From NCBI GenBank assembly GCA_965207065.1, contig OZ242260.1, positions 3,648,001 to 3,712,000 on the forward strand: DNA of 64,000 nt. The letters are read 5' to 3'. Below are positions 1,415-28,074 of the stretch, one piece after another. The notes under the pieces were generated by a model. That model searched no databases. It was not told the DNA's origin and saw nothing but the letters and a program-made list of their open reading frames with translations. The DNA is from a bacterium. Lineage in GTDB: Bacteria; UBA8248. The translations under genes and the position numbers were made by a program. Within the stretch, counting starts at the first letter, position 1; every line of letters begins with the position of its first letter.

Positions 1415-2044
1415 TTGCCGAACCAATCCGTCGTAGAAGCCACCTACACCTATTGCGTCCACTGAGCCTGGTGCCTGATCGCGACCGGGCGGTTGCGAAA
1501 ACTGACCGAACAGGCGGAGGGACGCCTCGCCATCCGCTACCGCGCCTTTCTGCTCTCGCCCGAGCCGGACAATCGTCCGGCCCGCAAGGAGGCCATCATG
1601 GGACACTGGGCGATGGCGAAAAGCCACCCCGGCGGCGAGGAGATAAATCCCGAACTCATGGCGCGCCGCGACTTCCCCTACCCCCATTCCACGCCCGGCG
1701 CGGTCGCCATCAAGGCCTTCGCCGCCCAGATGCCGGAGCGCGAGGGCGCGTACCTCGAAGCCGTGGAGCGAACGCACCTGGTCGAGTGCAGGAACATCGA
1801 CGATGCCGAAGTGCTCGTAGCCGCCGCCGAGCGGCTGGGGGCGGAGCCCGCGATGATGCGCGAAGTCATGGCCGACCCGGATATGAAACAGCGCGTCCGG
1901 GCGGACCACATCGAGGCGGTGAACGCAGGCATACAGTCCACGCCCACGGTCGATTTTTCCGGCAGCTACAGAATCACCGGCGCGCAGCCCATGGAGATTT
2001 TCACAAAAGCCCTGGAGCGCGCCATGGCCGATCTGGACACATAG
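1415..2044 (+). CDS. DsbA/FrnE-like thioredoxin-fold protein, probable selenoprotein (Sec at TGA 1463-1465)
   Basis: ORF 1493-2044 lacks the catalytic N-terminus. Reading upstream in frame through one TGA gives TTG(1415) start and MPNQSVVEATYTYCVH-U-AWCLIATGRL. GAGGA RBS at 1403-1407. C-terminal GIQSTPT...ITGAQP is the DsbA cis-Pro loop. Confidence 0.82.
1479..1498 (+). promoter_or_regulatory. Putative bacterial SECIS hairpin
   Basis: Stem TCGCGACC/GGTTGCGA (8 bp, one G-U), loop GGGC starting 21 nt after the TGA. Confidence 0.7.
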
Positions 2045-2051
2045 CGCGGCC

Positions 2052-2969
2052 ATGCGATCAGCCTGGCGGCTCGGAAGGTTCATCGTCATACCGGCGGTGG
2101 TTTTGCTGCTTGCGGGCTGCGAGAACGTCCGCGCCTTATTCACCCCCTGGGAGAACAGGGGGGCCGGATTAACATCAAAACCTATTCAGAAGAAAAAACT
2201 TGAAGACCCGTACTTTTTCCGCGTGCTGACGCTCCCGACCTACGACATGGCGAAGGAGGCGTATGACAAGACGGCCATACTCGGGATTCCCTTCCGCAAG
2301 GTGGCCCGGGAGTTCAAGGAAAAGGCGACCGCCATCCGCATTGCGGAGCCTTCTGAATTCAGCGTCGGCGTCCGGGCCGAGGTGCAGGACTTGAAGCTCG
2401 GGGCGACGTCGAGAATCATCGAGTCGGACGAGGGGTTTTCGATCCTCCAGAAGACGACGAGCGCGCATTACGAGCGCGCCCTAAGGCTCATGGAGAAGAA
2501 AAAAGACGAGGCCGCGCTCAAGCTCATACGCCGCGATCTCGAGATCAACCCCGGAAACGTGAAGGCCTGGCTCGCCCTGGCGAAGATGACGGACGAGGCG
2601 GGGGAGCTCGAGGAAACGCTCGCCGCATACGAGAAGGCCCGCGAACTCGACCCCGGGAACCCGGTCGTCTCCAACAGGTACGCCAGATACCTGGTGTCTC
2701 AATACCGCTACGAGGAAGCCGAGAAAATCCTGAAAGACGCGGAGAAAAAATCGCCCGAGGACGTGGGCGTTCTGGTGAACCTCGCCTCCCTGCTCGTCTA
2801 CCTGAACAAGGAGCCGGACCTCGCCTTTCGCCTCATCGAGCGGGGTTCACGGGTCGACCCCGGCCGCGCGGCCTGGTACCGCCTCTCGGGCGTCATCCGG
2901 AAAAGACGGGAGCTGGGCATCGCGCCGAAAGCGAAAGGGGTGAATCAGGGGGTCAATCGCAACTGGTAA
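2052..2969 (+). CDS. Lipoprotein with parvulin/PPIase-like region and TPR repeats
   Basis: Lipobox LLLAGC. LKLGATSRIIESDEGFSILQK resembles a PpiC C-terminus. TPR motifs (LEINPGNVKAWLALA, AYEKARELDPGNP). Confidence 0.7.
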   Translation: MRSAWRLGRFIVIPAVVLLLAGCENVRALFTPWENRGAGLTSKPIQKKKLEDPYFFRVLTLPTYDMAKEAYDKTAILGIPFRKVAREFKEKATAIRIAEPSEFSVGVRAEVQDLKLGATSRIIESDEGFSILQKTTSAHYERALRLMEKKKDEAALKLIRRDLEINPGNVKAWLALAKMTDEAGELEETLAAYEKARELDPGNPVVSNRYARYLVSQYRYEEAEKILKDAEKKSPEDVGVLVNLASLLVYLNKEPDLAFRLIERGSRVDPGRAAWYRLSGVIRKRRELGIAPKAKGVNQGVNRNW

Positions 2970-2971
2970 AA

Positions 2972-3670
2972 GCACCCCCCTACCCCCCCCTTGTCGGGGC
3001 TGTTGCAGAAGTTCTGCTTTCGAGACCGGGCGTATATATTACCTGCCGAGGAGAAAGAAGAATCACTCCCATCTTGAGGGTCGGGCATCCCGAGGGGGTG
3101 AGTTGATCCAACCTGCCTGAAAGGGTTTGCGGTATTTATTGTAGGGGTCGCATACATGCGACCCGGCCTTTTTCGCCACCCGTCATGGGCCGCATATATG
3201 CGGCCCCTACACCTAATTGAAAATGTCGTAGGGACAGGTCGCGACCTGTCCGACACGCAATGCTTCTTGCAAAGGACAACCCCTCCTTGAAGTTGTCCTG
3301 CCCTTCGTGGTTGTCCTTCGTCAGGACAGGCACGGAGGCCTGCCCCTACAAAAGGCGGAACGGTTTTGTTCGTCATTCCGGCGAAAGCCGGAATCCATTT
3401 GCGGATGCGGATGAATGAACGGCGGGGTTTCCTACCTCGCCGATGCGCGGGAACCCTGACGAAAGGCAAAAGGCGAATATGGATTCCGTCAAACCCTCAC
3501 TCCCCGGTCGGCTCCGACGCCGGGATGACGGTGGGAACCAATTCCGAGCGAGGAAGGAATTCTCAATACCCCCCTGGGTCGATCAGTTCCTCCTTCTTCG
3601 GTCAGCGGACCTTCCCTCTTCGGTCGGCAAACCCTCCTTCCTCAGTCGGGTTTCATCCCTACGCCCTTAT
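2972..3670. repeat. Intergenic mosaic of REP-like palindromes (GTAG- and CGTC-type) plus a MITE-end fragment
   Basis: GTAGGGGTCGCATACATGCGACCC 3141-3164 with inverted partner 3187-3210; GTAGGGACAGGTCGCGACCTGTCC 3228-3251; 3324-3349; CGTCATTCCGGCGAAAGCCGGAATCCA 3371-3397; GGGGCTGTTGCAGAA at 2996. Confidence 0.8.
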
Positions 3671-3745
3671 GCGTCATAATGCCGACGTTCCCGAACCACG
3701 CGAAAAGTTTCACGCCGAATTATAAAATCATGAGAGGGCAACCGC

Positions 3746-5098
3746 ATGAGCGCCGACCTTTTGATCAAGAACGCGAAAATCGTGACGCCCACGGACACCT
3801 ACGAGGGCTGCGTCTACGTGGAGGGGGGGCGGATCTCCGCCATCACCCATAAAGCAGAAGCGGGCGCGGCGCGCGAAATCGACGCCGCGGGCCGCCATCT
3901 CCTGCCGGGCATGGTGGACGAGCACGTGCACATGATGGACCCGGGCTTCACGGACAGGGAAGACTGGACGACGGGCACCGAGGCGGCGGCCCGGGGCGGC
4001 ATCACCACCGTGATCGACCACCACCGGAGCGACCCGCTCGTCTACACGCGCGAGATTCTGGAGGACAAGACCGCCTACATCGACTCGCGCTCTGTGGTGG
4101 ATTTCGGCCAACTCGGCGGCCTCGACGTCGACAACCTCGAACACCTGCGCCCCATGTGGGAGGGCGGCGCGCTGGGCTTCAAGGGCTTCATGTGCGAGCT
4201 GCACGGCGTGCCCGACCTCTCAGAAGGGGTATTGTTGAACATCATGCGCGAGGTCAAATCCTTCGGCGGCACGGTGATGCTGCACTGCGAGAGCGATTCC
4301 ATCCTCAATAAATCGAAAGAGAAGATCGACGCCGATAACCGGACGGACTACATGTGCATCAGCGACTGGCGAAACCCGGAGAGCGAATACGTGGCGACGC
4401 TCGACGCCGTGGCCCTCGCCGAACTCACGGGCTGCACCGTGCTGGTGGCACACGTGAGCCAGCCCGTATTGCTGGAAGCCATCCAGGCGGCGCGCGGACG
4501 CGGGGCGCGGATATTCGCCGAAAGCTGCCCCCAGTATTTCTATCTCGACCACTCGCATCTCGAAGAACTCGGGCCGTTCGTCAAGTTCACGCCCGTCATC
4601 CGCTCCGCCGAGACGCGCGACGGAATGCGCGCCGCGCTCGGGCGCGGCATGGTGGACACCATCGGCACCGACCACTGCCCCTTCCCCCGCCAGCGGAAGG
4701 TGGACGGGCTCGAGAACATCCACGACGCGCCCTTCGGCATACCGGGCGTGGAGACGACGGTGCGCCTGATGCTGAACGCCGTGAGCGAGGGCGTCCTGAC
4801 GCTCAACCAGATGGCACGCATCTGCTGCGAGCAGCCCGCGCGCGTCTTCAGCATCTATCCCCGCAAGGGGTGCATCCAGGTGGGCGCGGATGCGGACTTC
4901 ATCGTCGTGGACATGGACCGGGAAGAGACGCTGCGCGACGCGGACATCGTCTCCAAATGCAAGTGGACGCCTTTCGACGGCTGGACGATGAAGGGCGCGC
5001 CCGTGATGACGCTCGTGCGCGGCGAGGTCGTGATGGAAGACGGCGAGGTGACCGGAAGGGCGGGGTACGGCGAGACCGTCGAGCGCGTGGGGGGTTGA
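3746..5098 (+). CDS. Allantoinase/dihydroorotase-family cyclic amidohydrolase
   Basis: LPGMVDEHVH, GT.AAARGGITTVID, GFKGFM (carbamylated Lys), HCE, AHVS, E.CPQY, GTDHCP, KG.I.VGADADF. Confidence 0.88.
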   Translation: MSADLLIKNAKIVTPTDTYEGCVYVEGGRISAITHKAEAGAAREIDAAGRHLLPGMVDEHVHMMDPGFTDREDWTTGTEAAARGGITTVIDHHRSDPLVYTREILEDKTAYIDSRSVVDFGQLGGLDVDNLEHLRPMWEGGALGFKGFMCELHGVPDLSEGVLLNIMREVKSFGGTVMLHCESDSILNKSKEKIDADNRTDYMCISDWRNPESEYVATLDAVALAELTGCTVLVAHVSQPVLLEAIQAARGRGARIFAESCPQYFYLDHSHLEELGPFVKFTPVIRSAETRDGMRAALGRGMVDTIGTDHCPFPRQRKVDGLENIHDAPFGIPGVETTVRLMLNAVSEGVLTLNQMARICCEQPARVFSIYPRKGCIQVGADADFIVVDMDREETLRDADIVSKCKWTPFDGWTMKGAPVMTLVRGEVVMEDGEVTGRAGYGETVERVGG

Positions 5099-5155
5099 GG
5101 GAGCGTTTGCATCACACGGCGGAATTTCCATCACCGGGCGCAATCCGCCATATCA

Positions 5156-5354
5156 GAGGTTGTTGAAAAATCCTGCGCGCCCCCTCGAATAGAGACTGCA
5201 GGGGCGGCCCCCTGTGGCCGCCCGCCGGCCGTATTCCCCCCGATACAGGAGGGGCGCGTGACCCAAGGACAGGCACGGGGGCCTGTCCCTACTCCTCCCT
5301 CCCCGGTCGGCTCCATACGCCGAATCACGAAATTGGGATTATTTCAACACCCCC
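5156..5354. mobile_element. MITE-like element with terminal inverted repeats and 5-bp target-site duplication
   Basis: Ends GAGGTTGTTGAAAA / TTTCAACACCCCC. TATCA lies directly on both sides (5151-5155, 5355-5359). Interior is a REP doublet. Confidence 0.75.
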
Positions 5355-5488
5355 TATCAGGCATGCCAGGACAGGTCGCGCCACAAGCAGCGCGCATCCA
5401 GTACCTCAAAAATCTCCCGGACGGGACCTGTATTCGCGGTGCGTCCGGTTCAAATTTCGAGTGAGAAGCAGGCTCGCAATTGACGCCT

Positions 5489-5718
5489 GAATTTCCGGAA
5501 ATATCGATAAATTCAGATAAATTCACGGGGTTTTTCGATAAATTACCGAGGGGAATTGCGGGGTTCTGCGGGGAGTTGCGGGGGTGGGATGCGCGTAAAT
5601 ACGGGCAAATGCGTGCGCGAAAACCGGTTGTGACGGCCGGATTCCGCCGCCCCCAGGCGCAGGGGAATTCTCCCATGGCCCGCAACACTCTCGATGACGG
5701 CAAATGCGGGCAAATGCG
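5489..5718. repeat. Block of 10-bp-period direct repeats, partly duplicated at 23836-24100
   Basis: GATAAATT at 5506, 5516, 5537; GGGA/GTTGCG-like units 5550-5584; GGCAAATGCG x2 at 5699-5718. Confidence 0.6.
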
Positions 5719-5794
5719 CATTGGCCCAGACGCCGTCAGACGCTCCTGAGTCCGCTCCTGCGAGTGACACGTTTCTTATCATAAGATGTTGATA

Positions 5795-6838
5795 TTACTT
5801 CTGTTTCCTCTCCCAATCCAGGAGTTTTCTCTTGCGCTCCACGCCCCAGCGGTAGCCTGCGAGGCCGCCGTCTCCCCGGATCGCCCGGTGGCAGGGAACG
5901 AGCAGCGCCACCGGATTGCGGGCGCATGCGCTCCCCACCGCCCGCGCGCCTTCGGGTACTCCTAAGTCACCGGCGATATCCTTGTATGTCATTGTTTTTC
6001 CGTGAGGTATGGATCTGAGACGCTCCCATACGCGGCACTGAAACGTGCTGGCGCGCACGTCGAGCGGCAAGGAACCGGAGGCCGGCGCTCCTTCGGCCAA
6101 GCCCACAACGACGTTCAAGTATTCCTTCAACTCATCATCGCTACGACTCAGAATCGCATGGGGATATTCGTTTTTGAGATCGGAGACGAGTTCGCCGACT
6201 CTCTCTCCGATGCTCACGCGGCACACACCCTTTTCAGTAGCCGCCACGAGCAGCCTGCCCAGGTGGCAAGAGGTTACCCCGTAGCGTATCGAAACGCCGG
6301 CCCCGCCCTTCTTATAGGTGGCCGGCGTCATGCCCAGATAGCGCGATGCGCCCTCGTACACCCCCCTGCTCGAGCCGTAACCGGCCTCATAACCGGCGCC
6401 CGCTAGGTCGCGCCCGTTCTTGAGCAACTCCTTGTAATTCTGTGCTTTAAGGGATTCGATATACTGGCGGGGGCTTACGCCCAGGGCCCGCTTGAAGGTG
6501 CGCTGCAAATGGTGAGGACTTGCTCCCACCACCCGCCCCAGCACCGCGAGCGTCGGGTTTTCGTCGGCGTGTTCTTCGATGTAGCGAACGGCTTTTCTCA
6601 CCTTCTCCAGGCGGGGGTCGCAGCCCGCATCCTGCGGAGCGCACCTGAGACAAGGCCTGAACCCGCGGGCTTCCGCCATCTCGGGGAATTCGAAGAACAA
6701 CACGTTGTTTTTCCTGGGCTTTCGGCTCGCGCACGAAGGACGGCAATAAATTCCGGTGGAGCGGACGGCGTATACGAAACGGCCATCCGCTTTTGCGTCG
6801 CGGTCGAGGACGGCTTCCCATCGAGCATTCATTTTCAC
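5795..6838 (-). CDS. ada: Bifunctional Ada transcriptional activator / O6-methylguanine-DNA methyltransferase
   Basis: N-terminal Zn domain GIYCRPSC...FRPCLRC, AraC HTH, C-terminal PCHR active site. GTG start at 6838 with a GGAGG RBS. Confidence 0.93.
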   Translation of the reverse strand: MKMNARWEAVLDRDAKADGRFVYAVRSTGIYCRPSCASRKPRKNNVLFFEFPEMAEARGFRPCLRCAPQDAGCDPRLEKVRKAVRYIEEHADENPTLAVLGRVVGASPHHLQRTFKRALGVSPRQYIESLKAQNYKELLKNGRDLAGAGYEAGYGSSRGVYEGASRYLGMTPATYKKGGAGVSIRYGVTSCHLGRLLVAATEKGVCRVSIGERVGELVSDLKNEYPHAILSRSDDELKEYLNVVVGLAEGAPASGSLPLDVRASTFQCRVWERLRSIPHGKTMTYKDIAGDLGVPEGARAVGSACARNPVALLVPCHRAIRGDGGLAGYRWGVERKRKLLDWERKQK

Positions 6839-6863
6839 CTGAGAACCTCCCAAAAGAAATGAA

Positions 6864-6940
6864 CGATTACATATTCATCTATAATGTAATCGCAACGCCG
6901 GGAGTCTTCTACCCGATTCTTGCCGTCAAATCCGATTCTT
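6864..6940 (-). promoter_or_regulatory. Candidate ada regulatory region
   Basis: Perfect 9-bp inverted repeat CGATTACAT/ATGTAATCG (6864-6872, 6884-6892); direct repeat CCGATTCTT (6913-6921, 6932-6940); minus-strand GCAA-GAAT-CGG. Confidence 0.45.
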
Positions 6941-7003
6941 CATGATTGAAGGACAGAAGCATAACTGACTAATATTCAAATAGATACATAGTTTCCCCCG
7001 GTT

Positions 7004-8680
7004 TCATATCCCCGAGCGGAAAACGATTTTCCCTCCGACCATCGTGAGCAAGGGCTTGGTGTCCCTGATCTGATCTTCGGGTATCTTCATGTAATCGCGG
7101 TCGAGCACGACGAGGTCGGCCAGTTTGCCCTTTTCGATGGAACCGAGTTCATTTTCCTTGAAAAACAGGTACGCGTTCGAACGCGTGTGGGCGATGAGCG
7201 CGTTTTTCCTGGAAACGGTTTCGGCCTCCAAAAGCGCCCTCTCCCCGCCCAAATCCATGCCCGTAACCGCCCACCAAAGGGAAAGCATGGGCGGATAAGG
7301 GGCCACGACGCCGGCATCCGTGCCGAGCCCCCAAACGACCCCGCTGTTCTGAACTGTCCTCAGCGGCGGCAGCGAGAGCGCCCGCTCGCCCAATCTCCGC
7401 CTCAAAGCGGAGCCCAGAATCGTCATTTTGCTGTGCAGCGCCAGGGTCATCCCGAGCGCTTTCGCCCGTTCGATGTTTCTCTTCGAGATGAAATCCGCGT
7501 GGTGAATCGACCAGCGCAGATTCGTTATGTTCTTTTTCTGATTGATTTTCTCGAAAATATCCAGATACCGCGTAATCGTCGTATCGCGAAAAGCATGTTC
7601 GTGAATCGTCCATCCCCCATCCGCCGCCGCCCGGGAAACCTTTGCAAATTCCGCGTAATCCTCATCCGGGTACCGGGAGGGCCGGAACGCCGAGTCGTGG
7701 ATTCGCGCGTACATATGCTCGCCAAGCGCGATATTTCCCATCATTCTGGCGGATTTCTCAGGGCGGGAGTTTCGAATTCTCTCAATCACTCTTTTGTTTT
7801 GCTCCGGAGATCGGGCCCGGAAGCGGGGTGTGTGAAAAATCCTCAGCGTGAGGCCGTCCTTATCAGCCAGTCTTTGCTTGATCATCTTGTAGGTGGCGTC
7901 CCGGACGCCGCCGCCACCCAGTTCAAATACGCTCGTGACGCCGGCGCGGTTGAAGTCCGCCATCAGCTTCTTGAGGCCTGATATGGTTTTGCCATCCGTT
8001 ACTTTTGGCAGTTCACGCCGCCAGAACCTGAAAATGGCCCGGCGGCCACGAATAACGCCCGTGGGAGCGCCGGATGCCGTTCTGGCTATCCGCCAGCCTC
8101 TCGGAGCTTCAAAATTCTCATCGATGCCCGCCTTCTTCAGAGCCAGGCTGTTCAGAATCATGAACCGGTATGACTGCTGGATGAACACGGGGTTGTTCGC
8201 GGCGGCCGAGTCCAACTCCGCTTTCGTGAACAATCCCGGCTTATTCCGGAATTGCCCGGGGCTCCATCCACCAATGATGAGCACCCATTCTCCGCGTTTC
8301 AGCGACTTCGCCCTGGCGGATATGATGTCCAGCGCCTTTTGACGCGAAGTGACTCCGTCGATTCTCGCTTCGTGCTCCCAGCGCAGCGCATGGCGGATGA
8401 AATGAACATGATTGTCTATCAGGCCGGGGATCAGCGTTTTCCCTTTCAGATCAATCACTTTCGTACCGGAATTCACCAGTTGCCTTATCTGAGAATTACC
8501 CCCCACAGACAAGATGCGTTCGCCCTGGATGGCCACCGCCTGTTGCGTGGAGAAATTCGCATCGACCGTTAATACTTTCCCGTTCACCAGGGCGATATCT
8601 GCGGTTTGAGCAAAGCCAGAAGATGGGAGAACCCCCAGAATTACGAGCATTACTGCGAAAATTCTAATTTTCAGAACCAT
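7004..8680 (-). CDS. Secreted amidohydrolase 3 (YtcJ-like)
   Basis: Signal peptide ending GFAQ; DLKGKTLIPGLIDNHVH, GTDA, GSIEKGKLADLVVLDRD, TMVGGKIV. Confidence 0.85.
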   Translation of the reverse strand: MVLKIRIFAVMLVILGVLPSSGFAQTADIALVNGKVLTVDANFSTQQAVAIQGERILSVGGNSQIRQLVNSGTKVIDLKGKTLIPGLIDNHVHFIRHALRWEHEARIDGVTSRQKALDIISARAKSLKRGEWVLIIGGWSPGQFRNKPGLFTKAELDSAAANNPVFIQQSYRFMILNSLALKKAGIDENFEAPRGWRIARTASGAPTGVIRGRRAIFRFWRRELPKVTDGKTISGLKKLMADFNRAGVTSVFELGGGGVRDATYKMIKQRLADKDGLTLRIFHTPRFRARSPEQNKRVIERIRNSRPEKSARMMGNIALGEHMYARIHDSAFRPSRYPDEDYAEFAKVSRAAADGGWTIHEHAFRDTTITRYLDIFEKINQKKNITNLRWSIHHADFISKRNIERAKALGMTLALHSKMTILGSALRRRLGERALSLPPLRTVQNSGVVWGLGTDAGVVAPYPPMLSLWWAVTGMDLGGERALLEAETVSRKNALIAHTRSNAYLFFKENELGSIEKGKLADLVVLDRDYMKIPEDQIRDTKPLLTMVGGKIVFRSGI

Positions 8681-8840
8681 GCGATACCCCCTGAAACCAA
8701 AACATATTCTCTATGATTCACCCAAAGATCGAGGGATAGAAATACATCCGTGATGGTGATACCATATTCGCCCGGATCACCAATGACAGCAAATGCGTGG
8801 TTGGAGAAATGGTAATTCTCACCGTCGAGGAGGACCAAAA

Positions 8841-9842
8841 ATGAATACTTCCAATAATTCAAACCAGCAAACCCCCAGACCGAAAACAACCGTGGCGCCG
8901 GTTACCGTCATTCGCTTCGGAGAAATGATTCCTGATTGGGGTGAATATCATGAATCAAATATGGAGGGGAATCACCGGGCGATTTACCGATACATCGGAG
9001 GTATTTCCGGTCAAAATCTCCGCTCTCCCCTCCCCGGCTGGGAATTCACCTGCGGCATCGCCATGGCTCCTCCCCAAAACGGCGCACCGCTCCACGATCA
9101 CCCTGACGAAGAGATATTCATGGTCTGGGAAGGTGAATTCGAGATATTCTGGGAGGAATTCGAAACCAATGCTCCCAAAAGCGTCGTTTTGGGCAAATAC
9201 GATCTCATCCGCGTACCCTCCGGCATCATGCGCGGGTTCAGGAATGTCGGAAACGATGACGGGTTCATTCATTTCATCCACGGCCAGGGCGACTACCAGT
9301 ATCCCGTCTACCCTGATTCGCTGCGAGAAGGTCTGCCGGATGGCGCTCGAACCGAATCTTACGTCAAAAAACCCGCCTATGACCCGGCAACCCAACTGGT
9401 CCGCCACGAGGAATGTCCCCGGAACTGGAGCGTTTATTATGAGGCGAAACTTCCCGAGGGAGTTCGGTCTCTCAGGCGCTATATCGGCGGCGTATCCGGT
9501 GATACGGATGAAGGTCCACCGCCTTCCCTGTCCGAAGGAGAGATAGGATACGCGATGGTGGAATGCGGCAATGGCCGCGGCGCGCCGCTTCATGACCATC
9601 CATGCGAGGAACTTTTTATCGCTTTAGAGGGCAGATGGGTCGTCTATTGGGCCGACGAGCGGGGAAACATCGAGCAAGCCGTTCTCGAACCATGGGATGC
9701 CTGCTGGGTGCCTACCGGTGTGCAGCGCGGATTCCGAAATGCCGACCGAACCGAAGGGAAAATCCACATCATCCAGGGACAAGGAGCAACCCCGGCCCCT
9801 AACTACACGAAAGATTATGCTGCCCTGAAAGAAAATGCCTAG
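8841..9842 (+). CDS. Bicupin (internally duplicated cupin)
   Basis: Two copies of RYIGG...GAPLHDHPxEE.F...EG...VP.G..RGFRN...I.GQG. ATG 8841 follows AGGAGG. Confidence 0.8.
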   Translation: MNTSNNSNQQTPRPKTTVAPVTVIRFGEMIPDWGEYHESNMEGNHRAIYRYIGGISGQNLRSPLPGWEFTCGIAMAPPQNGAPLHDHPDEEIFMVWEGEFEIFWEEFETNAPKSVVLGKYDLIRVPSGIMRGFRNVGNDDGFIHFIHGQGDYQYPVYPDSLREGLPDGARTESYVKKPAYDPATQLVRHEECPRNWSVYYEAKLPEGVRSLRRYIGGVSGDTDEGPPPSLSEGEIGYAMVECGNGRGAPLHDHPCEELFIALEGRWVVYWADERGNIEQAVLEPWDACWVPTGVQRGFRNADRTEGKIHIIQGQGATPAPNYTKDYAALKENA

Positions 9843-9963
9843 ATGAACCCGCAGGATAGCGATTGAATGTGTATTTTGCGAGCATGGAAAACAGAAGCTA
9901 GATCAAATAGTTAGGGGGAAACATCCCTGACGGGGGGTGCGACCCGTTTGTATCGCTCAGCTT

Positions 9964-11166: not shown

Positions 11167-11189
11167 GCACACATCAAAATCCGGGAGCA

Positions 11190-18312: not shown

Positions 18313-18324
18313 ACAATCATCCCT

Positions 18325-19677: not shown

Positions 19678-19710
19678 AAAACTACTCCTCTAAGATGGAT
19701 TGAGTCGATT

Positions 19711-20208
19711 CTAATTCTTGTTCTTCAAACCTTGAAATTCCATTTCCCAATCCACATCCAAGTTCGCTTTTGCGATATCAGCCAGTGAAAATGATACCTT
19801 CTCCCCACTCTCGAAAAGTAGGCAAACAAAATTTTCCTCAACCTCAACCAACTGACCTACAATTTTCCTCTTGCCCTTCAGCCTTCCTTTAAGGCGTATC
19901 CGCACTCTATGCCCGAGATAACGCTCATAATCCTGGATTTTCCGTAAAGGCCTCTCAATACCGGGACTCGATACTTCAAGGCGATAAGATTTTTCAATGA
20001 CGTCTTTCTCATCGAGACATTCTCCGAGATTCCGGCTGACGACTACACAATCAGAGAGAAGAATACCTCCTGACTTTTCAATGTATACCCGAATTGCCAG
20101 TTGGCTGCGGTTACCGGTCAGTTCAATGTCAACCAATTCATACCCAAGGTCAGAAACTACTTCCTGGGTAATGTTCCAGATTTGATTTTCAACATCAATT
20201 GTCACCAT
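19711..20208 (-). CDS. rimP: Ribosome maturation factor RimP
   Basis: GYELVDIE, DC..VSR, YRLEVSSPGIERPL. Confidence 0.96.
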   Translation of the reverse strand: MVTIDVENQIWNITQEVVSDLGYELVDIELTGNRSQLAIRVYIEKSGGILLSDCVVVSRNLGECLDEKDVIEKSYRLEVSSPGIERPLRKIQDYERYLGHRVRIRLKGRLKGKRKIVGQLVEVEENFVCLLFESGEKVSFSLADIAKANLDVDWEMEFQGLKNKN

Positions 20209-20230
20209 AAACTCAATTCTGAGTGTGAAT

Positions 20231-20259
20231 AAAAAAATGGGCCATCAATTGACCCACTT
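20231..20259 (-). promoter_or_regulatory. rimP leader hairpin (terminator/attenuator-like)
   Basis: Minus strand AAGTGGGTC-AATTGAT-GGCCCATT followed by a T-run just upstream of rimP. A similar hairpin is a known conserved feature of rimP leaders. Confidence 0.6.
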
Positions 20260-20522
20260 ACTCAACAGTCAAAATCATCGATACTTTAATCGCCATTAAA
20301 GCAAAGCGCAAGTGTAATAACTTCTTTGTATTACATGAGGTAATTCTTGCTCGAAGAAATGGGGCGTGTTAAATTCTGCCGAATTGAGCGAATATACTAT
20401 TCTGAAACATAACGAACGGCGAATCATCTTTGCATTTTGTTCGAAGAAACGCCGCGGGTTGCCTTGCCCAAAGATAGAGTTGTCTCCTGGTTAGGCATAT
20501 TCATCAGAGAAGAGTTAAATCC

Positions 20523-21494
20523 ATGATTCGATTAACCAAAGTCAAGTCTCTGTGGATTTACGAAACGATGGTCCGCATTCGAAGGTTCGAGGAGCGTTCC
20601 ATTGAACTATTCCAGGCAGGGGAATTGCCGGGTTTTCTCCATGCCTACATCGGCGAAGAAGCCGTCGCCGCCGGGGTGTGTGCTCACCTAACCCCTAAAG
20701 ACCAGATCACATCTACACACCGCGGCCATGGGCACATGATTGCCAAGGGGCTCGAATACAAGGGCATGTTCGCCGAGTTGTACGCTCGCGCGACCGGTTA
20801 TTGCAAAGGGAAAGGAGGCTCCATGCACATCGCCGACCAGGACTTGGGTGCGCTGGGTGCGAATGGCATTGTGGGCGGAGGAATCCCTATCGCTACGGGA
20901 GCCGCTTTGGGGCTTCAGTTGAAGGGTGAAAAACATGTCGCCGTCAGTTTTTTTGGCGACGGGGCCAGCAATGAAGGCGCTTTCCATGAAGGTATCAACA
21001 TCGCTGCTACCTGGAAGCTGCCTGCCGTATTTGTGTGCGAGAACAACGGATTTGCCGAAAGCACGCCTCGCGCCACCCACCAGGCGGTTCAGGACATCGC
21101 GGATCGAGCAAAGGCTTACGGTATGCCCGGTATTGTTGTCGATGGTATGGACCCTCAAGCCGTATACGAAGTGGCAGGTGAAGCGATTGCGCGCGCACGC
21201 AAAGGGCGAGGACCTACGCTGATCGAAGCGAAAACAATGCGTTTCCTGGGCCATTACGTGGGCGACCCGGGCACCGCTTACGGACATGACAAAGAGGTGG
21301 GCAAGTGGCTCAAGCGTGACCCGCTCATCACATTTGCCGAAACACTCAAGCAGAAAAAATGGCTGAGCAAGAAAAGTATCGAAGCCATCCATGCGATCGT
21401 GAACAATGAGATGGAAGAGGCCATCGAATTCGCCCGGAAAAGCCCGGAACCCGATCTTGATGACGCCATGACCGACATCTACGCATCCGTTTAG
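20523..21494 (+). CDS. TPP-dependent pyruvate/acetoin dehydrogenase E1 alpha
   Basis: GFLHAYIGEEA, STHRGHGH, GKGGSMH, FFGDGASNEG...CENN. Confidence 0.92.
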   Translation: MIRLTKVKSLWIYETMVRIRRFEERSIELFQAGELPGFLHAYIGEEAVAAGVCAHLTPKDQITSTHRGHGHMIAKGLEYKGMFAELYARATGYCKGKGGSMHIADQDLGALGANGIVGGGIPIATGAALGLQLKGEKHVAVSFFGDGASNEGAFHEGINIAATWKLPAVFVCENNGFAESTPRATHQAVQDIADRAKAYGMPGIVVDGMDPQAVYEVAGEAIARARKGRGPTLIEAKTMRFLGHYVGDPGTAYGHDKEVGKWLKRDPLITFAETLKQKKWLSKKSIEAIHAIVNNEMEEAIEFARKSPEPDLDDAMTDIYASV

Positions 21495-21504
21495 GAAAAG
21501 GGAA

Positions 21505-22485
21505 ATGCGCGAGATATTATACCGAGAAGCTATCATCGAGGCCATGGATGAGGAAATGGCGAGGGATGATTCGGTTTTCCTGCTCGGAGAGGATATTGCC
21601 GAATTCGGCGGCTCATACAAGACGACAGTGGGGCTACTGAGCAAATATGGCGCTGAGAGGGTGAGGAATACTCCCATCTCGGAGCAAGGAATCATCGGCG
21701 CCGCCCTTGGGGCTGCGCTCGTCGGCATGCGGCCTGTGGCGGAGTTGATGTATATCGATTTTTCCGCTGTCGCTATGGATCAAATCGTCAACCAGGTCGC
21801 CAAGGTCCGCTATATGTTTGGGGGGAAAGCGAACACTTCGCTCGTCATCAGAACCCAAGGCGGCGCGGGACGCAGCTCCGCCGCCCAGCACGCGCAAAGC
21901 CTGGAGGCGTGGTTCGTTCACGTGCCTGGCCTCAAAGTGGTCATGCCCTCCAGCGCGCGTGACGCAAAAGGCCTTTTGAAAGCGGCTATCAGGGATGACG
22001 ACCCGGTATTTTTCATCGAACACAAGCTCCTTTATCTGGAAAGAGGCATTGTTCCCGAGGAAGAGGAAGTGATCCCCATCGGCGTCGCTGAGGTGAAAAA
22101 AGAGGGAAAAGACCTCACGATTGTCGCTACCTCCTCCATGGTCGGAAAATCACTTGTCGCGGCGGAGGAACTTGAAAAAGAAGGAGTACGCTGCGAGGTC
22201 ATCGACCCCAGAACGCTTTTCCCCCTGGATACGGAGACGATACTCGCCTCTGTCCGCAAAACGGGCCGGCTCCTCATCACACATGAGGCGGTGCAGCGTT
22301 GCGGCTGGGGGGCGGAAATCGCCGCCCTGGCCGCAAAAGAAGCTTTTGATTACCTGGACGCGCCCATTGAACGCGTCTGCGCCAAGGAAACACCGGTGCC
22401 TTTTTCGCCCAAACTCGAATCCTATGTCATACCCGACAAAGATGACGTAATCGCCGGGGTTCGTGGTATGTTAGAGACTGTATAA
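21505..22485 (+). CDS. Pyruvate/acetoin dehydrogenase E1 beta
   Basis: LGEDI, RVRNTPISE, AAQHAQS, VIDPRTL.PLD. Confidence 0.92.
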   Translation: MREILYREAIIEAMDEEMARDDSVFLLGEDIAEFGGSYKTTVGLLSKYGAERVRNTPISEQGIIGAALGAALVGMRPVAELMYIDFSAVAMDQIVNQVAKVRYMFGGKANTSLVIRTQGGAGRSSAAQHAQSLEAWFVHVPGLKVVMPSSARDAKGLLKAAIRDDDPVFFIEHKLLYLERGIVPEEEEVIPIGVAEVKKEGKDLTIVATSSMVGKSLVAAEELEKEGVRCEVIDPRTLFPLDTETILASVRKTGRLLITHEAVQRCGWGAEIAALAAKEAFDYLDAPIERVCAKETPVPFSPKLESYVIPDKDDVIAGVRGMLETV

Positions 22486-22521
22486 CTTCAAAACACATCC
22501 AATTCTTAGGAGCAAAGATTC

Positions 22522-23772
22522 ATGGCCACTCCCCTCCCGATGCCTAAACTCGGCCTCACCATGGAAGAAGGAACTATCCTCAAGTGGCGAAAGGACGAGG
22601 GTGAAGCGGTCGAAAAGGGCGAGATCATCCTCGACATCCAGACCGACAAGGTCGAATACGAGGTCGAATCGCCGGACGGCGGCCTCCTGCTCAAAACACT
22701 GGCGGGAGAAGGCGACGTCGTTCCCTGCGGGACGGACATTGCCGTTATCGGCGAGGCGGGAGAGGATACCAGCAGCTTTGGAAGCACTCCCGCACAGGCC
22801 TCTGCGGAACCCGAACCTTCGGCGACGGAAGCGCCCGCGACGCCAACGCCCGCACTTGCGCCAACCCCTGCTCCGCCAGCATCTATGGCAGCTCAACCCG
22901 CGCCCACGGGCCGGGTATTTGCCAGTCCGGCCGCCAGGCGCGTGGCCCGCGAACTCGGAATCGACTACCGCGCGCTCAACGGCTCAGGCCCCGGCGGGAG
23001 AATCGTACAGGCCGACGTAAGAGCGGCAGCGGCATCGGGCCTTCCCGCTGCACCGGTCGCCGCTGCGAGCGGCCCTGCGGCCGTGGCGGGTTCAACGCCC
23101 CTGGCCGGGATGCGGAAAATCATTGCCGATCGCATGCTCTCGAGTTGGTCCCAGGTGCCGCGCATCACCATGCAGGCCGAGGTGGACCTCACGAACCTCC
23201 TCGCCGTGCGCGAGGCCAGCCGCCAGGCGTGGGAAAACGACCTCGGCGTCAAGGTGTCCATCAACGATCTCATCCTCTTCTACACCGCCCGCGCCGTACG
23301 TCGCTGTCCGGCCGTGAATGTTCGCCTCGGCGATAACGCTCTGGAACAAATGCAGGACGTGAACATCGGCGTGGCCGTCGCCGTCGAGCAGGGGCTGATG
23401 GTGCCCGTCATACGGGGCGCTGATCAGAAATCGATCGACGCCATCTCGCGCGAGTCGCGAGCGCTGGCCGAAGCGGCCCGCGCGGGCGCCTTGGGGCTGG
23501 ATGCGCTGGAAGGCGGCACTTTCACGGTCTCGAATCTGGGAGCGTACGGGGTCGACCATTTCAGCGCCATCATCAACCACCCCGAATCCGCCATCCTCTC
23601 GGTCGGCGCGGCGCGAGAGCGCGCCGTCGTGCGAAACGGCGAGGTCGTGGCCCGGACGACGGCCTTCGTCGGCATCAACGCCGACCACCGACTGGTGGAC
23701 GGTGCGCCGGCGGCCGAGTTCCTCTCCACGCTCAAGGAGATGCTCGAGCATCCCAAGGTGATGCCCGCATAA
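22522..23772 (+). CDS. Dihydrolipoamide acyltransferase E2
   Basis: Lipoyl domain (TDKVEYEVESP), Pro/Ala linker, E3-binding domain SPAARR...GSGPGGRI, catalytic DHRLVDG. Confidence 0.93.
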   Translation: MATPLPMPKLGLTMEEGTILKWRKDEGEAVEKGEIILDIQTDKVEYEVESPDGGLLLKTLAGEGDVVPCGTDIAVIGEAGEDTSSFGSTPAQASAEPEPSATEAPATPTPALAPTPAPPASMAAQPAPTGRVFASPAARRVARELGIDYRALNGSGPGGRIVQADVRAAAASGLPAAPVAAASGPAAVAGSTPLAGMRKIIADRMLSSWSQVPRITMQAEVDLTNLLAVREASRQAWENDLGVKVSINDLILFYTARAVRRCPAVNVRLGDNALEQMQDVNIGVAVAVEQGLMVPVIRGADQKSIDAISRESRALAEAARAGALGLDALEGGTFTVSNLGAYGVDHFSAIINHPESAILSVGAARERAVVRNGEVVARTTAFVGINADHRLVDGAPAAEFLSTLKEMLEHPKVMPA

Positions 23773-23835
23773 ACGGCAACCCTTTTTATTTCTGAACCTT
23801 ATAACAGTTTATTCAACCAGTTTATATTTTCATTT

Positions 23836-24100
23836 ATTTACCGGAAAATCCCGTGAATTTATCTATATTTATCGAATTGTTCGGGAATTCCCTGACGGTC
23901 CGTCCCGGGATCGATTTCGGTTCGCCGAGCCGGGGAGAAGAAGAACCTCCTGGCTGAAGATTTGCTGTTGTTCCGATCCGAATCTGAATCGTCCTTTCCA
24001 TTTTCTCCCCTGCTCTCATCCACGAGAACACTCACGTTCGCGCGCGGGATTCTCGCCCATCCCGACGAAAAACCGCCGGCGGCAAATGCGGGCAAATGCG
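23836..24100. repeat. Second copy of the 10-bp-period repeat modules
   Basis: 23836-23890 is a near reverse complement of 5489-5544. GGCAAATGCGGGCAAATGCG at 24081-24100 is identical to 5699-5718. Confidence 0.6.
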
Positions 24101-24396
24101 CGCCCGACGACGAGCCATGCGAAATGAGAATTCATGAACATTCGGTGGCGTGGGCTCAGCACATTAGATTTGCATCGGCTGACGACCGCGAGCCCTCCTT
24201 TTCGCAGGGCTCGCGGACAGGCATTGTCTCCTTATTGGCCTGCGCAATCCCACCCTCGGCAGCCGAAATTGACCCCGTTTACCTCTCCTCGCATCGTGTT
24301 GTATGATGATTTGCGTTGTGGCGCGCGTCTTGGAGCCGCCCATGATTCGAGAATATCCCGCCCCCCGGAGAGCCCGGGTCAATCAGGAGACTGGCA

Positions 24397-24807
24397 ATGG
24401 CCGAGACAGTTCGGGAAGTACCCTACTACTACATCAACGCTTCGAACAAACCGGGAGAGGGCGCCGCCCTCGCCGAGCTTTTCAAGGATGCGGGCGTCAG
24501 CCTGCTGGCGATGCACGCCTTCCCCTCGCGCAGGCGGGTCCAGGTCGATTTCGTTCCCGAGGACGCGCGGGCATTCACCTCCTTCGCGCGCAAGGCGAAG
24601 CTCAAGCTCAGCCCCCGGAAAAAGGCCTTTCTCGTCGAGGGCACGGACCGCACCGGGGCGCTCGTGCCGGTTTTCACCAAACTCGCCGAAGCAGACATCA
24701 ACATCACCGCCATCACGGCCATCGCAGCGGGTAAAAAGCGCTACGGCGCCATCTTGTGGGTGAATCCCAAGGACCAGCGCAGGGCCAAGCGAGCGCTGGG
24801 GGCGTAA
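24397..24807 (+). CDS. Tandem ACT-domain protein
   Basis: NKPGEGA and DRTGAL...KLAEADINI ACT signatures; AGGAG RBS. Confidence 0.75.
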   Translation: MAETVREVPYYYINASNKPGEGAALAELFKDAGVSLLAMHAFPSRRRVQVDFVPEDARAFTSFARKAKLKLSPRKKAFLVEGTDRTGALVPVFTKLAEADINITAITAIAAGKKRYGAILWVNPKDQRRAKRALGA

Positions 24808-24839
24808 ACCCGACCGAGGAGGCAGGGTACCGGAACTCC

Positions 24840-24898
24840 GTAGGGACAACCCCCTGTGGTTGTCCTCCGTCAGGACAGGCGCGGGGGCCTGTCCCTAC
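24840..24898. repeat. GTAG-type REP doublet
   Basis: GTAGGGACAACCCCTGTGGTTGTCC ... GGACAGGCGCGGGGGCCTGTCCCTAC, similar to about 3305-3349 and 5267-5292. Confidence 0.8.
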
Positions 24899-24932
24899 GT
24901 TGCTTTTGCGGATTGAACGATACGCCTGACTC

Positions 24933-25406
24933 TCACCCCTGCCCCAACGCCAACTCCATGAAAACCACACCCTCCACGGGAGTTTCGTCGTAAGGGACGA
25001 TTTCCCTGAAGACCATGGAGCGGTAAAGAGCGATGGCCGCGCGCATGGCGGGCAGCGTATGGAGCCGCACCGAGGCGTAGCCCATCTCCTTTGCCGCACG
25101 AACTATTTCCTCCGCGCACTTTCTCCCCAGCCCCCGTCCCCTGAAACCGGGCCGCACATAGAGACGCTTCATCTCACAGGTTTTTCCTCCTGAATCCACA
25201 AGGGCGACGCAACCGGCGGTCTCCTCCTCCACGCGGAGTAAAAGAAATCTCCCGCCAGGCGGACCGTACATCTGCTCGAGGCTTTCGAGTTCTTCGGGAA
25301 AACCCTGAAAACACAGGTCGATTCCGAGATCGGCCTCGTACTCGCGCAGCAAGTCTGCAGCCAAGCGGTAGATTTCTTTCGTCTCTGCGATAATGAATTC
25401 GGGCAT
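24933..25406 (-). CDS. GNAT family N-acetyltransferase
   Basis: DLCFQGF..EL, GCVAL, CEMKRLYVRP.FRGRGLG, A..LY. Confidence 0.9.
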   Translation of the reverse strand: MPEFIIAETKEIYRLAADLLREYEADLGIDLCFQGFPEELESLEQMYGPPGGRFLLLRVEEETAGCVALVDSGGKTCEMKRLYVRPGFRGRGLGRKCAEEIVRAAKEMGYASVRLHTLPAMRAAIALYRSMVFREIVPYDETPVEGVVFMELALGQG

Positions 25407-25603
25407 TCTAAGACTGCCTCCTTATACTCCCATCCTACAGTGAGCGGGGCGGTTCGTGAATCACCCTAAGAACGGCTCAGGAGCATTAGCCCAAAATATG
25501 TAGCGGACAAGCCCCTGCACCTGTCCGAGGGCGCGACCTGCCCATACCAGAGGAGAGTTCGCAGGGGGTGACCCATTTCTACCTTCGCTTCTTTGCCTTT
25601 GTT

Positions 25604-25740
25604 CGTCATTCCGGCGAATGCCGGAATCCAGAACCGATGAGAGGAATAATCAACGGCAATTCCATCCCTTCATACAACTCGTACAAGACACAAAAGAGAA
25701 AAAACAAAATCTCTGGATTCCGGCATTCACCGGGATTACG
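25604..25740. repeat. CGTC-type REP doublet
   Basis: CGTCATTCCGGCGAATGCCGGAATCCAG ... CTGGATTCCGGCATTCACCGGGATTACG; same family as 3371-3397. Confidence 0.78.
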
Positions 25741-25929
25741 GCGGTAAAACCTGATTCTTCTTTCTGAAGAATCGCCCCTCCCCGGTCGCGTCGAACACTC
25801 ATCCATCAATCGCGTTTGACCCCTTGCGCATCACACTTTCGGGAACGATATTGAATCACATAGGCGGTCGTTTACTCCTGGCCGCTGACGAGATATGGCG
25901 TAGATGGCCGCAGATCCGGAGGTCACGCC

Positions 25930-26262
25930 ATGAAAAAAACCTTTCTCCTCGGTTGCTTCTTCCTCACCTGGCTCGCATCCGGAGCCCTCTTTCCGTCCGC
26001 TGATGGCGTCATCCCCATCATCGGCGAGGCGCAGGCGCACAAGTTCATGAAGAAAGTATCCACGACCCACTACCGCGAGGCTCTCATGGAGAACCTGAAA
26101 ACCCTGGACGTGGTGCCGGTGCGGACCGGAGATAGCGCCCCGCGCATGAGACGAGCGACACCAGTACACTTCAATCACAATCCGGCTCGAAGAGCCGACG
26201 GATGCATGTCCTGCCACTACCTCCCTTTCGCAAAAGACGAAACCAAAACGAATGGCGGTTGA
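25930..26262 (+). CDS. Small exported protein with one CxxCH heme-binding motif
   Basis: GGAGG RBS, hydrophobic N-terminus ending AQA, PVHFNH...GCMSCH. Confidence 0.6.
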   Translation: MKKTFLLGCFFLTWLASGALFPSADGVIPIIGEAQAHKFMKKVSTTHYREALMENLKTLDVVPVRTGDSAPRMRRATPVHFNHNPARRADGCMSCHYLPFAKDETKTNGG

Positions 26263-26307
26263 GCAGGCGTGATTTAAGTCATCGACAAATCGAGCATTAT
26301 TGTTTTT

Positions 26308-26355
26308 CACTCCCCACTTGAGGGGGTTGTTGAAAAACCCTCAAGGGAGGAATGA
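26308..26355. repeat. Collapsed copy of the MITE/palindrome family
   Basis: CACTCCCCACTTGAGGG-GGTTGTTGAAAAA-CCCTCAAGGGAGGAATGA combines the palindrome arms with one terminal repeat. Confidence 0.6.
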
Positions 26356-26441
26356 TTTCAAGTGATGACGCGGACTCAACCCACGCTTATAATGGGGCAT
26401 CGCCCGGTTGCGGCTCGATTGTAGGAAAGGAGTCCCGGACC

Positions 26442-26777
26442 ATGACGCAAGTCGACGACGCGCTCCTCCAGAAAATGGTGAATACCATCGTGGACGAAGT
26501 CGATCCCGAGCAGGTGATCCTCTTCGGCTCGCGCGCGCGTGGCGATGCAGCGGCGGATTCCGACGTGGATTTCGTGGTGGTGGAAGCGGCGCCTTTTGGC
26601 GATGGCCGGGATAGGCGCGCCGAGACGACGCGGCTTTGGCGCGCACTGGCGGGTTTTGACGTTTCCAAAGACATACTGCTCTTCAGCCGCGACGAGGTGG
26701 AATACTGGCGCGATTCCCTCAACCACGTCCTGGCGCGCGCCCTGCGCGAAGGCGAAATGCTATATGAGCGATCTTGA
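26442..26777 (+). CDS. Minimal nucleotidyltransferase (MNT-type antitoxin)
   Basis: ILFGSRARGDA..DSDVDFVVV, DIL, ALREG..LYE; AAGGAG RBS. Confidence 0.9.
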   Translation: MTQVDDALLQKMVNTIVDEVDPEQVILFGSRARGDAAADSDVDFVVVEAAPFGDGRDRRAETTRLWRALAGFDVSKDILLFSRDEVEYWRDSLNHVLARALREGEMLYERS

Positions 26778-27299
26778 AAGAAGCAATAGAGTGGCTGAGA
26801 GTAATGGAGAGTTGATACAAGCCTTTTGCGCCGCCGTAGGAGAACTCATCCTATGGGGAGCTGCTATAGATTCACAACTCACTAAGGCTGTTATCCGGCT
26901 GTTCTTACTAAAAGAAACCCCGATGCTTGAGTCTGTAATTGCTGAACTACCTACTCGAACCAAAATCGCCCTCCTGCGAGCCGATTCGAGGCAAATCACG
27001 GCTTCCGATTGGCAACAGAAGATAAAGGATTGGGCTAAGCTAGCTGGGAAAGTCAACGATTACCGCAACATTGTGGCCCACCATCAAGTGAAATTCGAAA
27101 ATGAGAAACCCGTTCTTTTTCGTCACAGGCGACAAGACTCTTAAATAGAATCGATGGTTCAAATATACAGCCAGCCCAAAACATAGACGATATTCGTGAG
27201 TGGATAGACACCGCGAAAAAAACAATCATGCAGGGAGAAACACTTCTGCAAAATCTAGATCGGTTTGTTGAGGAATATACGAGACGTCAAACAAGTTAG
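26764..27299 (+). pseudogene. HEPN-like putative RNase toxin, apparently frameshifted near 27116-27120
   Basis: ATG overlaps the MNT end; contains RNIVAH (RxxxxH). The frame stops at 27144, but the -1 frame is open 27105-27299 (SSQATRLLNRIDG...EEYTRRQTS), with a T5 run at the junction. Confidence 0.6.
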
Positions 27300-27411
27300 C
27301 CCCCCTTTTTTCAGTGGCTCTTTTCCACTCTCCATTGATCCCCACCCCTCCTTACGCGAGAATGCACCCTCACTCTCATCCGTTCACGCATCACCAGAAA
27401 GGGATTCCGCT

Positions 27412-28074
27412 ATGCCGATAAATGAAGCCACCGGCCTCTCTCAGGATATGGGCGTCACCGAGGAGATGATGGCCTGCCCCCTCCCCCGGGTGCCTATGAT
27501 CGATCCGGACAACATCCCCGAACACCTGGCCGAAGAACTCGCGCCCCTCTATGAGCGCGGCGTGAAGCGCTGGGGCAAAGTGTCGCGCTTTTTGCGCCTG
27601 CTCGGCTGGGCGCCCGGCTTCGTCGAGGGCTGGCAGATCATGGACGGCAAGCTCAGGGTCCAGCACCGCGACTCCGACCCCGAATACATCCACATGGCCC
27701 AGCTCGTCATCATCAAGACGGCCATCCTGACCGAGTGCAACAACTGACTCGGGCACAACGTCGAGCTCGGTCGGGCTCAGGGCATCGAACAGGAAAAAAT
27801 CAATCTGCTGGAGGGCGACGGCTGGCGGGACAGCGACCTCTTCGACGAAAAGGAAAAAGCCGCCATCAACTGGGCGGAGGAAGTAACGAACCTGACGGCG
27901 AAGGGGAACGACGCGGCCTTCGAGGCCATGCAGAAACATTTCTCCACCGAACAACTCGTCTCGCTGACCCTCATCTGCGGGCTGTGGAACCTGACGGGCC
28001 GCGTGGCCGAGGCCTTACACCTCGTCGTGGAACCCCCGGGCGAGCGCATCGCGTTTCAGGAGGGGAGTGAGTAG
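27412..28074 (+). CDS. AhpD/carboxymuconolactone-decarboxylase-like protein, probable selenoprotein (Sec at TGA 27745-27747)
   Basis: LVIIKTAILTECNN-U-LGH matches the AhpD-like CxxC..H motif. The same frame continues 108 codons with family-typical FDEKEKAAINWAEEVT and HFSTEQLVSLT...WN. Confidence 0.87.
27763..27778 (+). promoter_or_regulatory. Putative bacterial SECIS hairpin
   Basis: Stem GAGCTC/GGGCTC, loop GGTC starting 21 nt after the TGA; extendable by GTC/GGC across an AG bulge. Confidence 0.7.

Follow-up and report, generated by a model that had tools for sequence, protein, structure and literature searches.

Do two unrelated genes that carry the same small hairpin at the same distance behind an in-frame TGA reveal a genome-specific grammar for selenocysteine (Sec) insertion, or does ordinary bacterial decoding account for the likeness? 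The question is raised by a 64,000-nucleotide stretch of DNA, hereafter the window, from a UBA8248 bacterium (assembly GCA_965207065.1, contig OZ242260.1, positions 3,648,001 to 3,712,000 of the forward strand). A first-pass annotation of the window had pointed to two TGA triplets, each with a C-G-closed GGNC tetraloop 21 nt behind it and with codons for Gly-Arg at positions +8/+9 after Sec, and we could confirm both the observation and its coordinates. From it the annotation had derived a single, tightly constrained selenocysteine insertion sequence (SECIS) consensus, TGA-N20-C-GGN-CGG, that would leave an imprint on protein sequence and could be used to find selenoproteins. Our analysis instead favors, with a probability of about 0.9, two independent selenoprotein genes served by standard bacterial decoding, one DsbA-like with a UxxC motif and one AhpD-like (CMD family) with a CxxU motif, whose resemblance is not a genome-specific grammar. 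The features concerned, in window coordinates, are these:

1415 to 2044, forward strand: DsbA-like (FrnE-like) selenoprotein gene of 209 codons, active site C-V-H-U-A-W-C, with a provisional TTG start at 1415
1463 to 1465, forward strand: Sec codon (TGA) of the DsbA-like gene, flanked on either side by coding sequence in the same frame and aligned with the first Cys of CxxC
1479 to 1498, forward strand: SECIS hairpin 1, with an 8-bp stem (1479-1486/1491-1498) and the loop GGGC (1487-1490)
27412 to 28074, forward strand: AhpD-like/CMD-family selenoprotein gene of 220 codons from the ATG at 27412, active site C-N-N-U-L-G-H
27745 to 27747, forward strand: Sec-encoding TGA of the AhpD-like gene, aligned with the second Cys of CxxC
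27763 to 27778, forward strand: SECIS hairpin 2, with a 6-bp stem (27763-27768/27773-27778) and the loop GGTC (27769-27772)

The DsbA-like protein matches the Pfam family PF01323 (DSBA) over residues 15-200 (E = 6e-17), a span that takes in U17, and the CPWC of its PDB homologues SCO1869 and FrnE aligns with its U-A-W-C. Of 147 homologues listed from a representative library (P0036-P0182), we aligned the 68 whose match starts at query residue 17 or earlier; in 64 of these, both the U position and +3 are Cys. The TGA stands at the first Cys of the CxxC motif in a DSBA-like thioredoxin domain. Read as U, TGA 1463 yields UAWCLIATGR, and the TGA with conserved peptide on both flanks recurs in 25 of 25 DsbA-like loci, the genome's own included, at 48-100% identity. 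The stem of hairpin 1 pairs TCGCGACC (1479-1486) with GGTTGCGA (1491-1498), giving 8 bp that include one G.U, and presents its loop at a spacing of 21 nt from the TGA above a C-G closing pair. The hairpin alone has an energy of -12.6 kcal/mol, and it forms the apical hairpin in the minimum free energy (MFE) fold of 60 nt. Its 6-bp core, GC(G/A)ACC/GGTTGC, is kept together with its codons in all 25 loci, the sole stem change being G.U to A-U, and the loop reads GGGC, GGUC or GUGC. Among 19 orthologues of the genus, the third positions of codons +5 and +7 to +10 are invariant, while neighboring codons vary freely.

The AhpD-like protein is matched by AhpD-core chains of the PDB, with E values from 1.8e-15 (Atu0492, 2gmy; CxxC aligned) to 1e-5. 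Its TGA falls on the second Cys of the CxxC(xxH) motif, with Cys aligned to it in the PDB chains and in eight full-length homologues, the latter sharing 47-53% identity and the same Met start. The codon, which specifies residue 112 from the ATG at 27412, is read as U in ULGHNVELGR, codon-usage scores are positive on either side of it, and the TGA with conserved flanking peptide is found in 30 of 30 AhpD-like loci. Hairpin 2 (GAGCTC/GGGCTC, 6 bp including one U.G) again has a 21-nt spacing and a C-G closing pair; taken alone it reaches -7.8 kcal/mol, a narrow pass of the -7.5 kcal/mol limit of the bacterial SECIS (bSECIS) model. It is kept in all 30 loci, where the only stem change, U.G to U-A, occurs in four. 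Twelve further CMD-family genes of the genome contain an in-frame TGA, eleven of them with a TGA-aligned paralogue and one (866494) on Pfam alone. When 10 of the 13 CMD paralogues were aligned, the three most divergent being excluded, 88% of cells in the hairpin were paired compared with 27-52% for slid partners, two-sided changes occurred in 4 of the 6 pairs, and none of 500 shuffles reached the observed score; one row (135501) is misaligned by three columns, which counts against pairing.

The genome, assembled as one contig of 4,476,866 bp, contains tRNA-Sec, selA, selB and selD, and thus the complete selA/selB/selC/selD set that defines the Sec-decoding trait. The tRNA-Sec lies at 690478-690574 with anticodon tca (Aragorn), and the profiles TIGR00475, TIGR00474 and TIGR00476 give 386 bits for selB, 579 bits for selA and 334 bits for selD, respectively, each above its curated cut-off; selD itself has an in-frame TGA. 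A genome lacking this machinery would have told against the first-pass annotation, and this is not what we found. In the mechanism we envisage, SelD would supply selenophosphate, SelA would convert Ser-tRNA-Sec to Sec-tRNA-Sec, and SelB, bound to a small hairpin of the coding sequence shortly after an in-frame UGA (the bacterial SECIS), would deliver the latter to that codon. In each of the two genes, the hairpin whose G-starting tetraloop lies 21 nt after the UGA would be this element, and we predict from the sequences that SelB binds and Sec is inserted at both UGAs. The likeness of the two sites could then have two sources, a general need of SelB for a small loop of the type G[G/U]N, some 18-22 nt past the UGA, and a coincidence of reading frame and family-typical Arg codon.

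Several points weigh against this reading. At site 1, the MFE fold of 48 nt is another hairpin (z-score -1.97) that begins 3 nt past the UGA; we discounted it because hairpin 1 is what the 60-nt fold yields and because the frozen synonymous sites belong to hairpin 1. No pair at this site changes on both sides, G.U to A-U being the only change, and the case for hairpin 1 rests on conservation. Hairpin 2 is unexceptional as a single-sequence fold (z-score -0.19), and PF02627 scores the AhpD-like protein at 21.5 bits, slightly below the 23-bit cut-off (its paralogues score 23-58 bits in Pfam). The set of 50 Sec sites used for comparison below was curated by ourselves: 29 were Pfam-scanned, with the best matched stretch spanning the TGA in 23 of these, and the remaining 21 are supported by paralogues with TGA or TGC at the aligned position. 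Lastly, gene callers start the DsbA-like gene at an in-frame TTG at codon +10.

That start would be expected if one or both TGAs were true stops, with the DsbA-like gene beginning at the TTG ten codons downstream and the AhpD-like gene being split or a pseudogene. Gene models in databases (P0012 among them) do begin at that TTG or at an ATG further on, and the AhpD-like fragments P0008 and P0009 end at the TGA. However, conserved peptide flanks the TGA in all 25 DsbA-like loci, the most distant at 48% identity, and in all 30 AhpD-like loci, of which those read go down to 60%; the TGA is aligned with a catalytic Cys in both families, truncation would cost the redox motif, and coding signal flanks TGA 27745 on both sides. 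We consider true stops very improbable. With the Cys alignments in place, and with TGA and hairpin kept in every one of the 25 DsbA-like and 30 AhpD-like loci, the annotation of both triplets as Sec codons followed by SECIS-type hairpins holds.

To place the two sites within the genome, a reference set was assembled by a codon-usage scan for in-frame TGA, a search for TGA-aligned paralogues, Pfam scans and curation by eye. The resulting 50 Sec-TGA sites comprise 13 CMD/AhpD-like, eight UGSC (PF24696) and five OsmC sites; three each of the deiodinase-like, GrdB-like and AhpC/TSA families; two each of the thioredoxin-like, rhodanese, PF04273 phosphatase-like and DSBA families and of no assigned family; and one each for GrdB, GrdA, DUF3179, DsrE and CoA-transferase. 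Many candidates of the scan and the paralogue search proved to be gene junctions (TGA, ribosome-binding site, ATG) or repeated elements. Candidate 901024 was dropped as an HU gene followed by an NYN-domain fragment, and 2274271 and 895511 were dropped after no Pfam family was found for them. With SelD and a third DsbA-like gene, at least 52 Sec sites are supported. A scan of all TGAs by hairpin and codon score gave 69 extra candidates, most of which resemble shadow frames and none of which has a redox motif (Pfam was not applied to them); the same scan missed SelD and the third DsbA-like gene and is therefore neither specific nor complete.

The large selenoproteome anticipated from two genes in 64 kb is thus borne out by these 52 or more sites. 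Its description as under-annotated stands in part: gene callers truncate the DsbA-like gene, the AhpD-like gene and dozens more in the genome at the TGA, but UBA8248 metagenome-assembled genomes with 48-54 selenoprotein genes are already in the literature. By the figures given in the text of PMC13326102, three such genomes in BSepDB, labeled Nitrospinota, Nitrospinaceae or Nitrospinae, have 54, 50 and 48 selenoprotein genes and rank among the ten selenoprotein-richest bacteria.

Across the 50 sites, the strict motif fits three, namely TGA 1463, TGA 27745 and an AhpD paralogue at 1383132, far from the majority that a genome-wide grammar implies; it is found at none of 772 true-stop TGAs. In the whole genome it has 85 hits among 132,637 TGA trinucleotides, which is no excess over the 57-135 hits obtained with other spacings from N14 to N29, and only three hits can form a stem of 6 bp or more, one in a non-coding frame. 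As a finder of selenoproteins the motif failed, its genome scan yielding none beyond the two given genes and the one AhpD paralogue. In the Rfam search, no family reached its gathering score anywhere in the window, and near the two sites there were only matches at chance level (E 0.5-9).

What the 50 sites display is a geometry that varies by family in loop position, loop size and closing pair. The best hairpin with a G in its loop begins 13-34 nt after the TGA, mostly 17-22, at a position typical for each family, with loop offsets of 22 for AhpD, 20 for UGSC, 17 for deiodinase-like, 21 for OsmC, 19 for GrdB, 26 for GrdA, and 18 and 20 for rhodanese. The closing pair is C-G at 24 sites, G-C at 10, A-U at nine, U-A at six and G-U at one. 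At 39 of the 50 sites, the loop has its first G 18-22 nt after the TGA. A bSECIS-like hairpin follows 38 of the 50 Sec sites compared with 102 of the 772 true-stop TGAs, and for a loop start 17-22 nt after the TGA the figures are 34 of 50 and 31 of 772. Identity in loop offset, loop length, closing pair and first two loop bases occurs in one of 120 family pairs; when the features are shuffled, at least one such pair arises in 10% of trials, and we regard the sharing of features between the DsbA-like and AhpD-like hairpins as weak evidence.

These results bear on two stronger accounts of the resemblance. If the organism's SelB demanded the one consensus TGA-N20-C-GGN-CGG, it would force Gly-Arg at +8/+9 and the motif could be used as a finder. 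Both window sites and paralogue 1383132 match, true stops lack the motif, and candidate 1212966 likewise has L-G-R at +7 to +9. Yet a match at three of 50 Sec sites, genome hits that do not rise above other spacings, and a non-coding frame for one of the three hits with a 6-bp or longer stem are hard to reconcile with such a demand, as are the other offsets, loops or closing pairs in 14 of 16 family groups. Within the two families themselves, four of ten AhpD paralogues have a U-A closing pair followed by Gln at +9, one DsbA orthologue has Val at +8 and a GUGC loop, and Arg is the majority residue at +9 in Cys homologues. We give this strict form next to no credence, and the single consensus of the first-pass annotation was not upheld.

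A milder form, in which C-GGNC-G at +22, or the GGUC tetraloop generally, is a SECIS subclass preferred by the lineage's SelB, would have unrelated families converge on it and the resemblance selected. The GGUC loop at offset 22 in nine of the 13 CMD-family sites, its replacement of GGGC in two DsbA orthologues (L096 and L097), and the first loop G within 18-22 nt at 39 of 50 sites would all suit it, as would the position of the essential loop residue G23 of Escherichia coli, which the text of PMC8659212 places 20 nt after the UGA. A GrdB-like gene (TGA 1074816) also shares a 13-mer of site 2, GCTCGGTCGGGCT, in another reading frame and at loop offset 18, but its hairpin is weak (4 bp, -4.3 kcal/mol). 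Moreover, paralogues of one family do not count as independent cases, GUG, GUA, AGGU or GGG loops are found at other offsets in other families, and an identical set of features in two families is met in the 10% of shuffles mentioned above. A preferred subclass is unlikely on this evidence, if less so than the strict consensus, and two independent genes with standard decoding remain our preferred explanation.

The proposed imprint on protein sequence was sustained in part. In the 64 DsbA-like CxxC homologues, +9 is Arg in 46 and +10 is Leu in 53, while +8 is Gly in one; SCO1869 and FrnE likewise have Arg at +9. By contrast, Gly occupies +8 in 24 of the 25 DsbA-like Sec loci, the exception being the Val orthologue with loop GUGC. 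Judged from these alignments, Arg +9 and Leu +10 are family features of DsbA-like proteins, and Gly +8 looks like the only Sec-specific residue. For the AhpD-like protein, the Cys sample consisted of eight near homologues and three distinct PDB proteins. The near homologues have Gly (four) or Ala (four) at +8 and Arg at +9 in six of eight; Atu0492 has Ser-Arg and PA0269 Ala-Arg at these positions. Gly-Arg at +8/+9 is therefore not confined to Sec proteins, and the objection that the first-pass annotation had itself foreseen, that Gly-Arg might be equally conserved in Cys homologues, applies in part, through the 46 of 64 and six of eight with Arg +9. What remains of the imprint is the Gly +8 of the DsbA-like family, a coupling in AhpD paralogues, where a C-G closing pair goes with Arg (CGN) at +9 and U-A (four of ten) with Gln (CAA), and the frozen synonymous sites. 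Minor codons are fixed inside the hairpins across orthologues (TTG, 9.8% of Leu; GCT, 8.6% of Ala; GGT, 13% of Gly), which supports the view that the hairpins limit synonymous change in the coding sequence.

A further idea is that the lineage's SelB may impose a geometry narrower than the published model, such that the hairpin visibly shapes the protein and a tuned model might recover missing families. The C-GGUC-G apical element does recur in three unrelated families, in different reading frames. We put this forward tentatively, as something we rather doubt; if true, a SECIS model tuned to the lineage might recover unlisted families, such as PF04273 with H-U-x5-R and the PF01144 CoA-transferase.

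A number of observations were made alongside, the relatives compared being 51 genomes of the phylum. Upstream of the DsbA-like gene, a gene at window positions 652-1360 (forward strand) is conserved in position in orthologous loci, and 18 of the 19 genus-level loci (L077-L095, with L083 the one in which it was not seen) share an E-W-A-L-E peptide some 630 nt ahead of the TGA. The AhpD/CMD-like Sec genes are strongly expanded, with 13 in this genome (for example at TGA 235548, 478755, 571320, 1383132, 1673393, 2851726, 3286979 and 3371279) and 1-15 matches in each of the phylum's other 47 genomes with matches; among the matches listed, 148 of 149 contain a TGA, a further 204 matches lying beyond these. 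In the GrdB-like gene with TGA 1074816 (reverse strand, L044), the 13-mer shared with site 2 corresponds to the apical part of hairpin 2 and is read in another frame (R-S-V-G-L); its GGUC loop comes 17 nt after the TGA, compared with 21 at site 2.

Two paralogous PF04273 genes (BLH phosphatase-like/DSP-PTPase-like), at 1354407-1354859 on the forward strand and 4140378-4140893 on the reverse strand (L057 and L058), have a TGA at the catalytic Cys of the H-C-x5-R loop (FVH-U-KATGRAG). A TGA is present in 57 of 58 matches, in 35 of the 51 phylum genomes, the exception being a 44-residue fragment at a contig end. The terms "phosphatase", PF04273 and DUF442 are absent from the main text of the 2026 review PMC13188914, a scope that does not take in the 111 families of BSepDB, and the phosphatase-like genes may represent a selenoprotein family that current lists lack. 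In a gene of the CoA-transferase family (PF01144, E = 7e-21) at 3021183-3022055 on the reverse strand (L066), residue 117 corresponds to an in-frame TGA (TEHA-U-ASVLAGL), and a strong hairpin of -14.9 kcal/mol comes after it, the GGC loop lying 24 nt from the TGA. A TGA is kept in 35 matches (63-99% identity) from 34 phylum genomes; paralogues at 35-53% identity are without it, and one paralogue in the genome has TGC at the aligned position. Neither "CoA transferase" nor PF01144 is named in the main text of PMC13188914, the BSepDB family list again being outside this scope. Two small frames with in-frame TGA at 1212966 and 337229 (both reverse strand; L064 and L062) show the redox-like motifs D-C-G-N-U and E-C-D-G-V-U and strong hairpins, with no secure Pfam family for either. 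The former, with its L-G-R at +7 to +9, has a GGC loop that lies 21 nt past the TGA, and no in-frame start codon was found upstream of it.

The main lesson of the locus is one of method, as a motif drawn from two genes looks like a grammar yet recovers only 6% of the genome's Sec sites. A looser rule, a small G-starting loop 17-22 nt after the UGA with an energy of at most -7.5 kcal/mol, applies about 17 times as often to Sec sites as to true stops (68% compared with 4%). The finding is real, was correctly spotted and is ordinary; the literature already contains both families, the SECIS model and the Sec-richness of the lineage, and nothing biologically new follows from the finding.

This ordinariness is apparent from the known systems. 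In the bSECIS model of Zhang and Gladyshev (2005), as summarized in PMC13188914, the loop has 3-9 nt with a G in its first two positions, the stem 4-16 bp, the UGA-loop spacing is 16-37 nt and the MFE at most -7.5 kcal/mol. By these summarized limits both hairpins satisfy every criterion, lying in the coding sequence directly 3' of the UGA with 4-nt loops (GGGC and GGUC), stems of 8 and 6 bp, a spacing of 21 nt and energies of -12.6 and -7.8 kcal/mol. Nothing essential sets them apart; the spacing used in this genome is narrower than the model allows, with a loop start at 17-22 nt in 34 of 50 sites. The loop of the E. coli fdhF SECIS reads GGUC, and the element also has a bulged U17. With that element, as far as the text of PMC8659212 describes it, the hairpins share a small apical stem-loop, a fixed short distance to the UGA and an apical-loop G, which at both sites here lies at 22 nt, 2 nt further from the UGA than G23. 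Both protein families have been recognized as selenoprotein families since the Sargasso Sea study of 2005, in the account given by PMC13188914, AhpD-like with CxxU and DsbA-like form 1 with UxxC. The DsbA-like protein agrees with form 1 (PF01323) in its DSBA fold by Pfam and in U-x-x-C replacing C-P-W-C, and differs in an extra Cys three residues before U and in its Gly +8, rare in Cys homologues (1 of 64). The AhpD-like protein has the C-x-x-U-x-x-H active site of the AhpD-like/CMD-like family (TIGR01926, PF02627) and homology to AhpD-core structures, and differs from what is known of that family in its strong expansion, to 13 Sec paralogues in a single genome.

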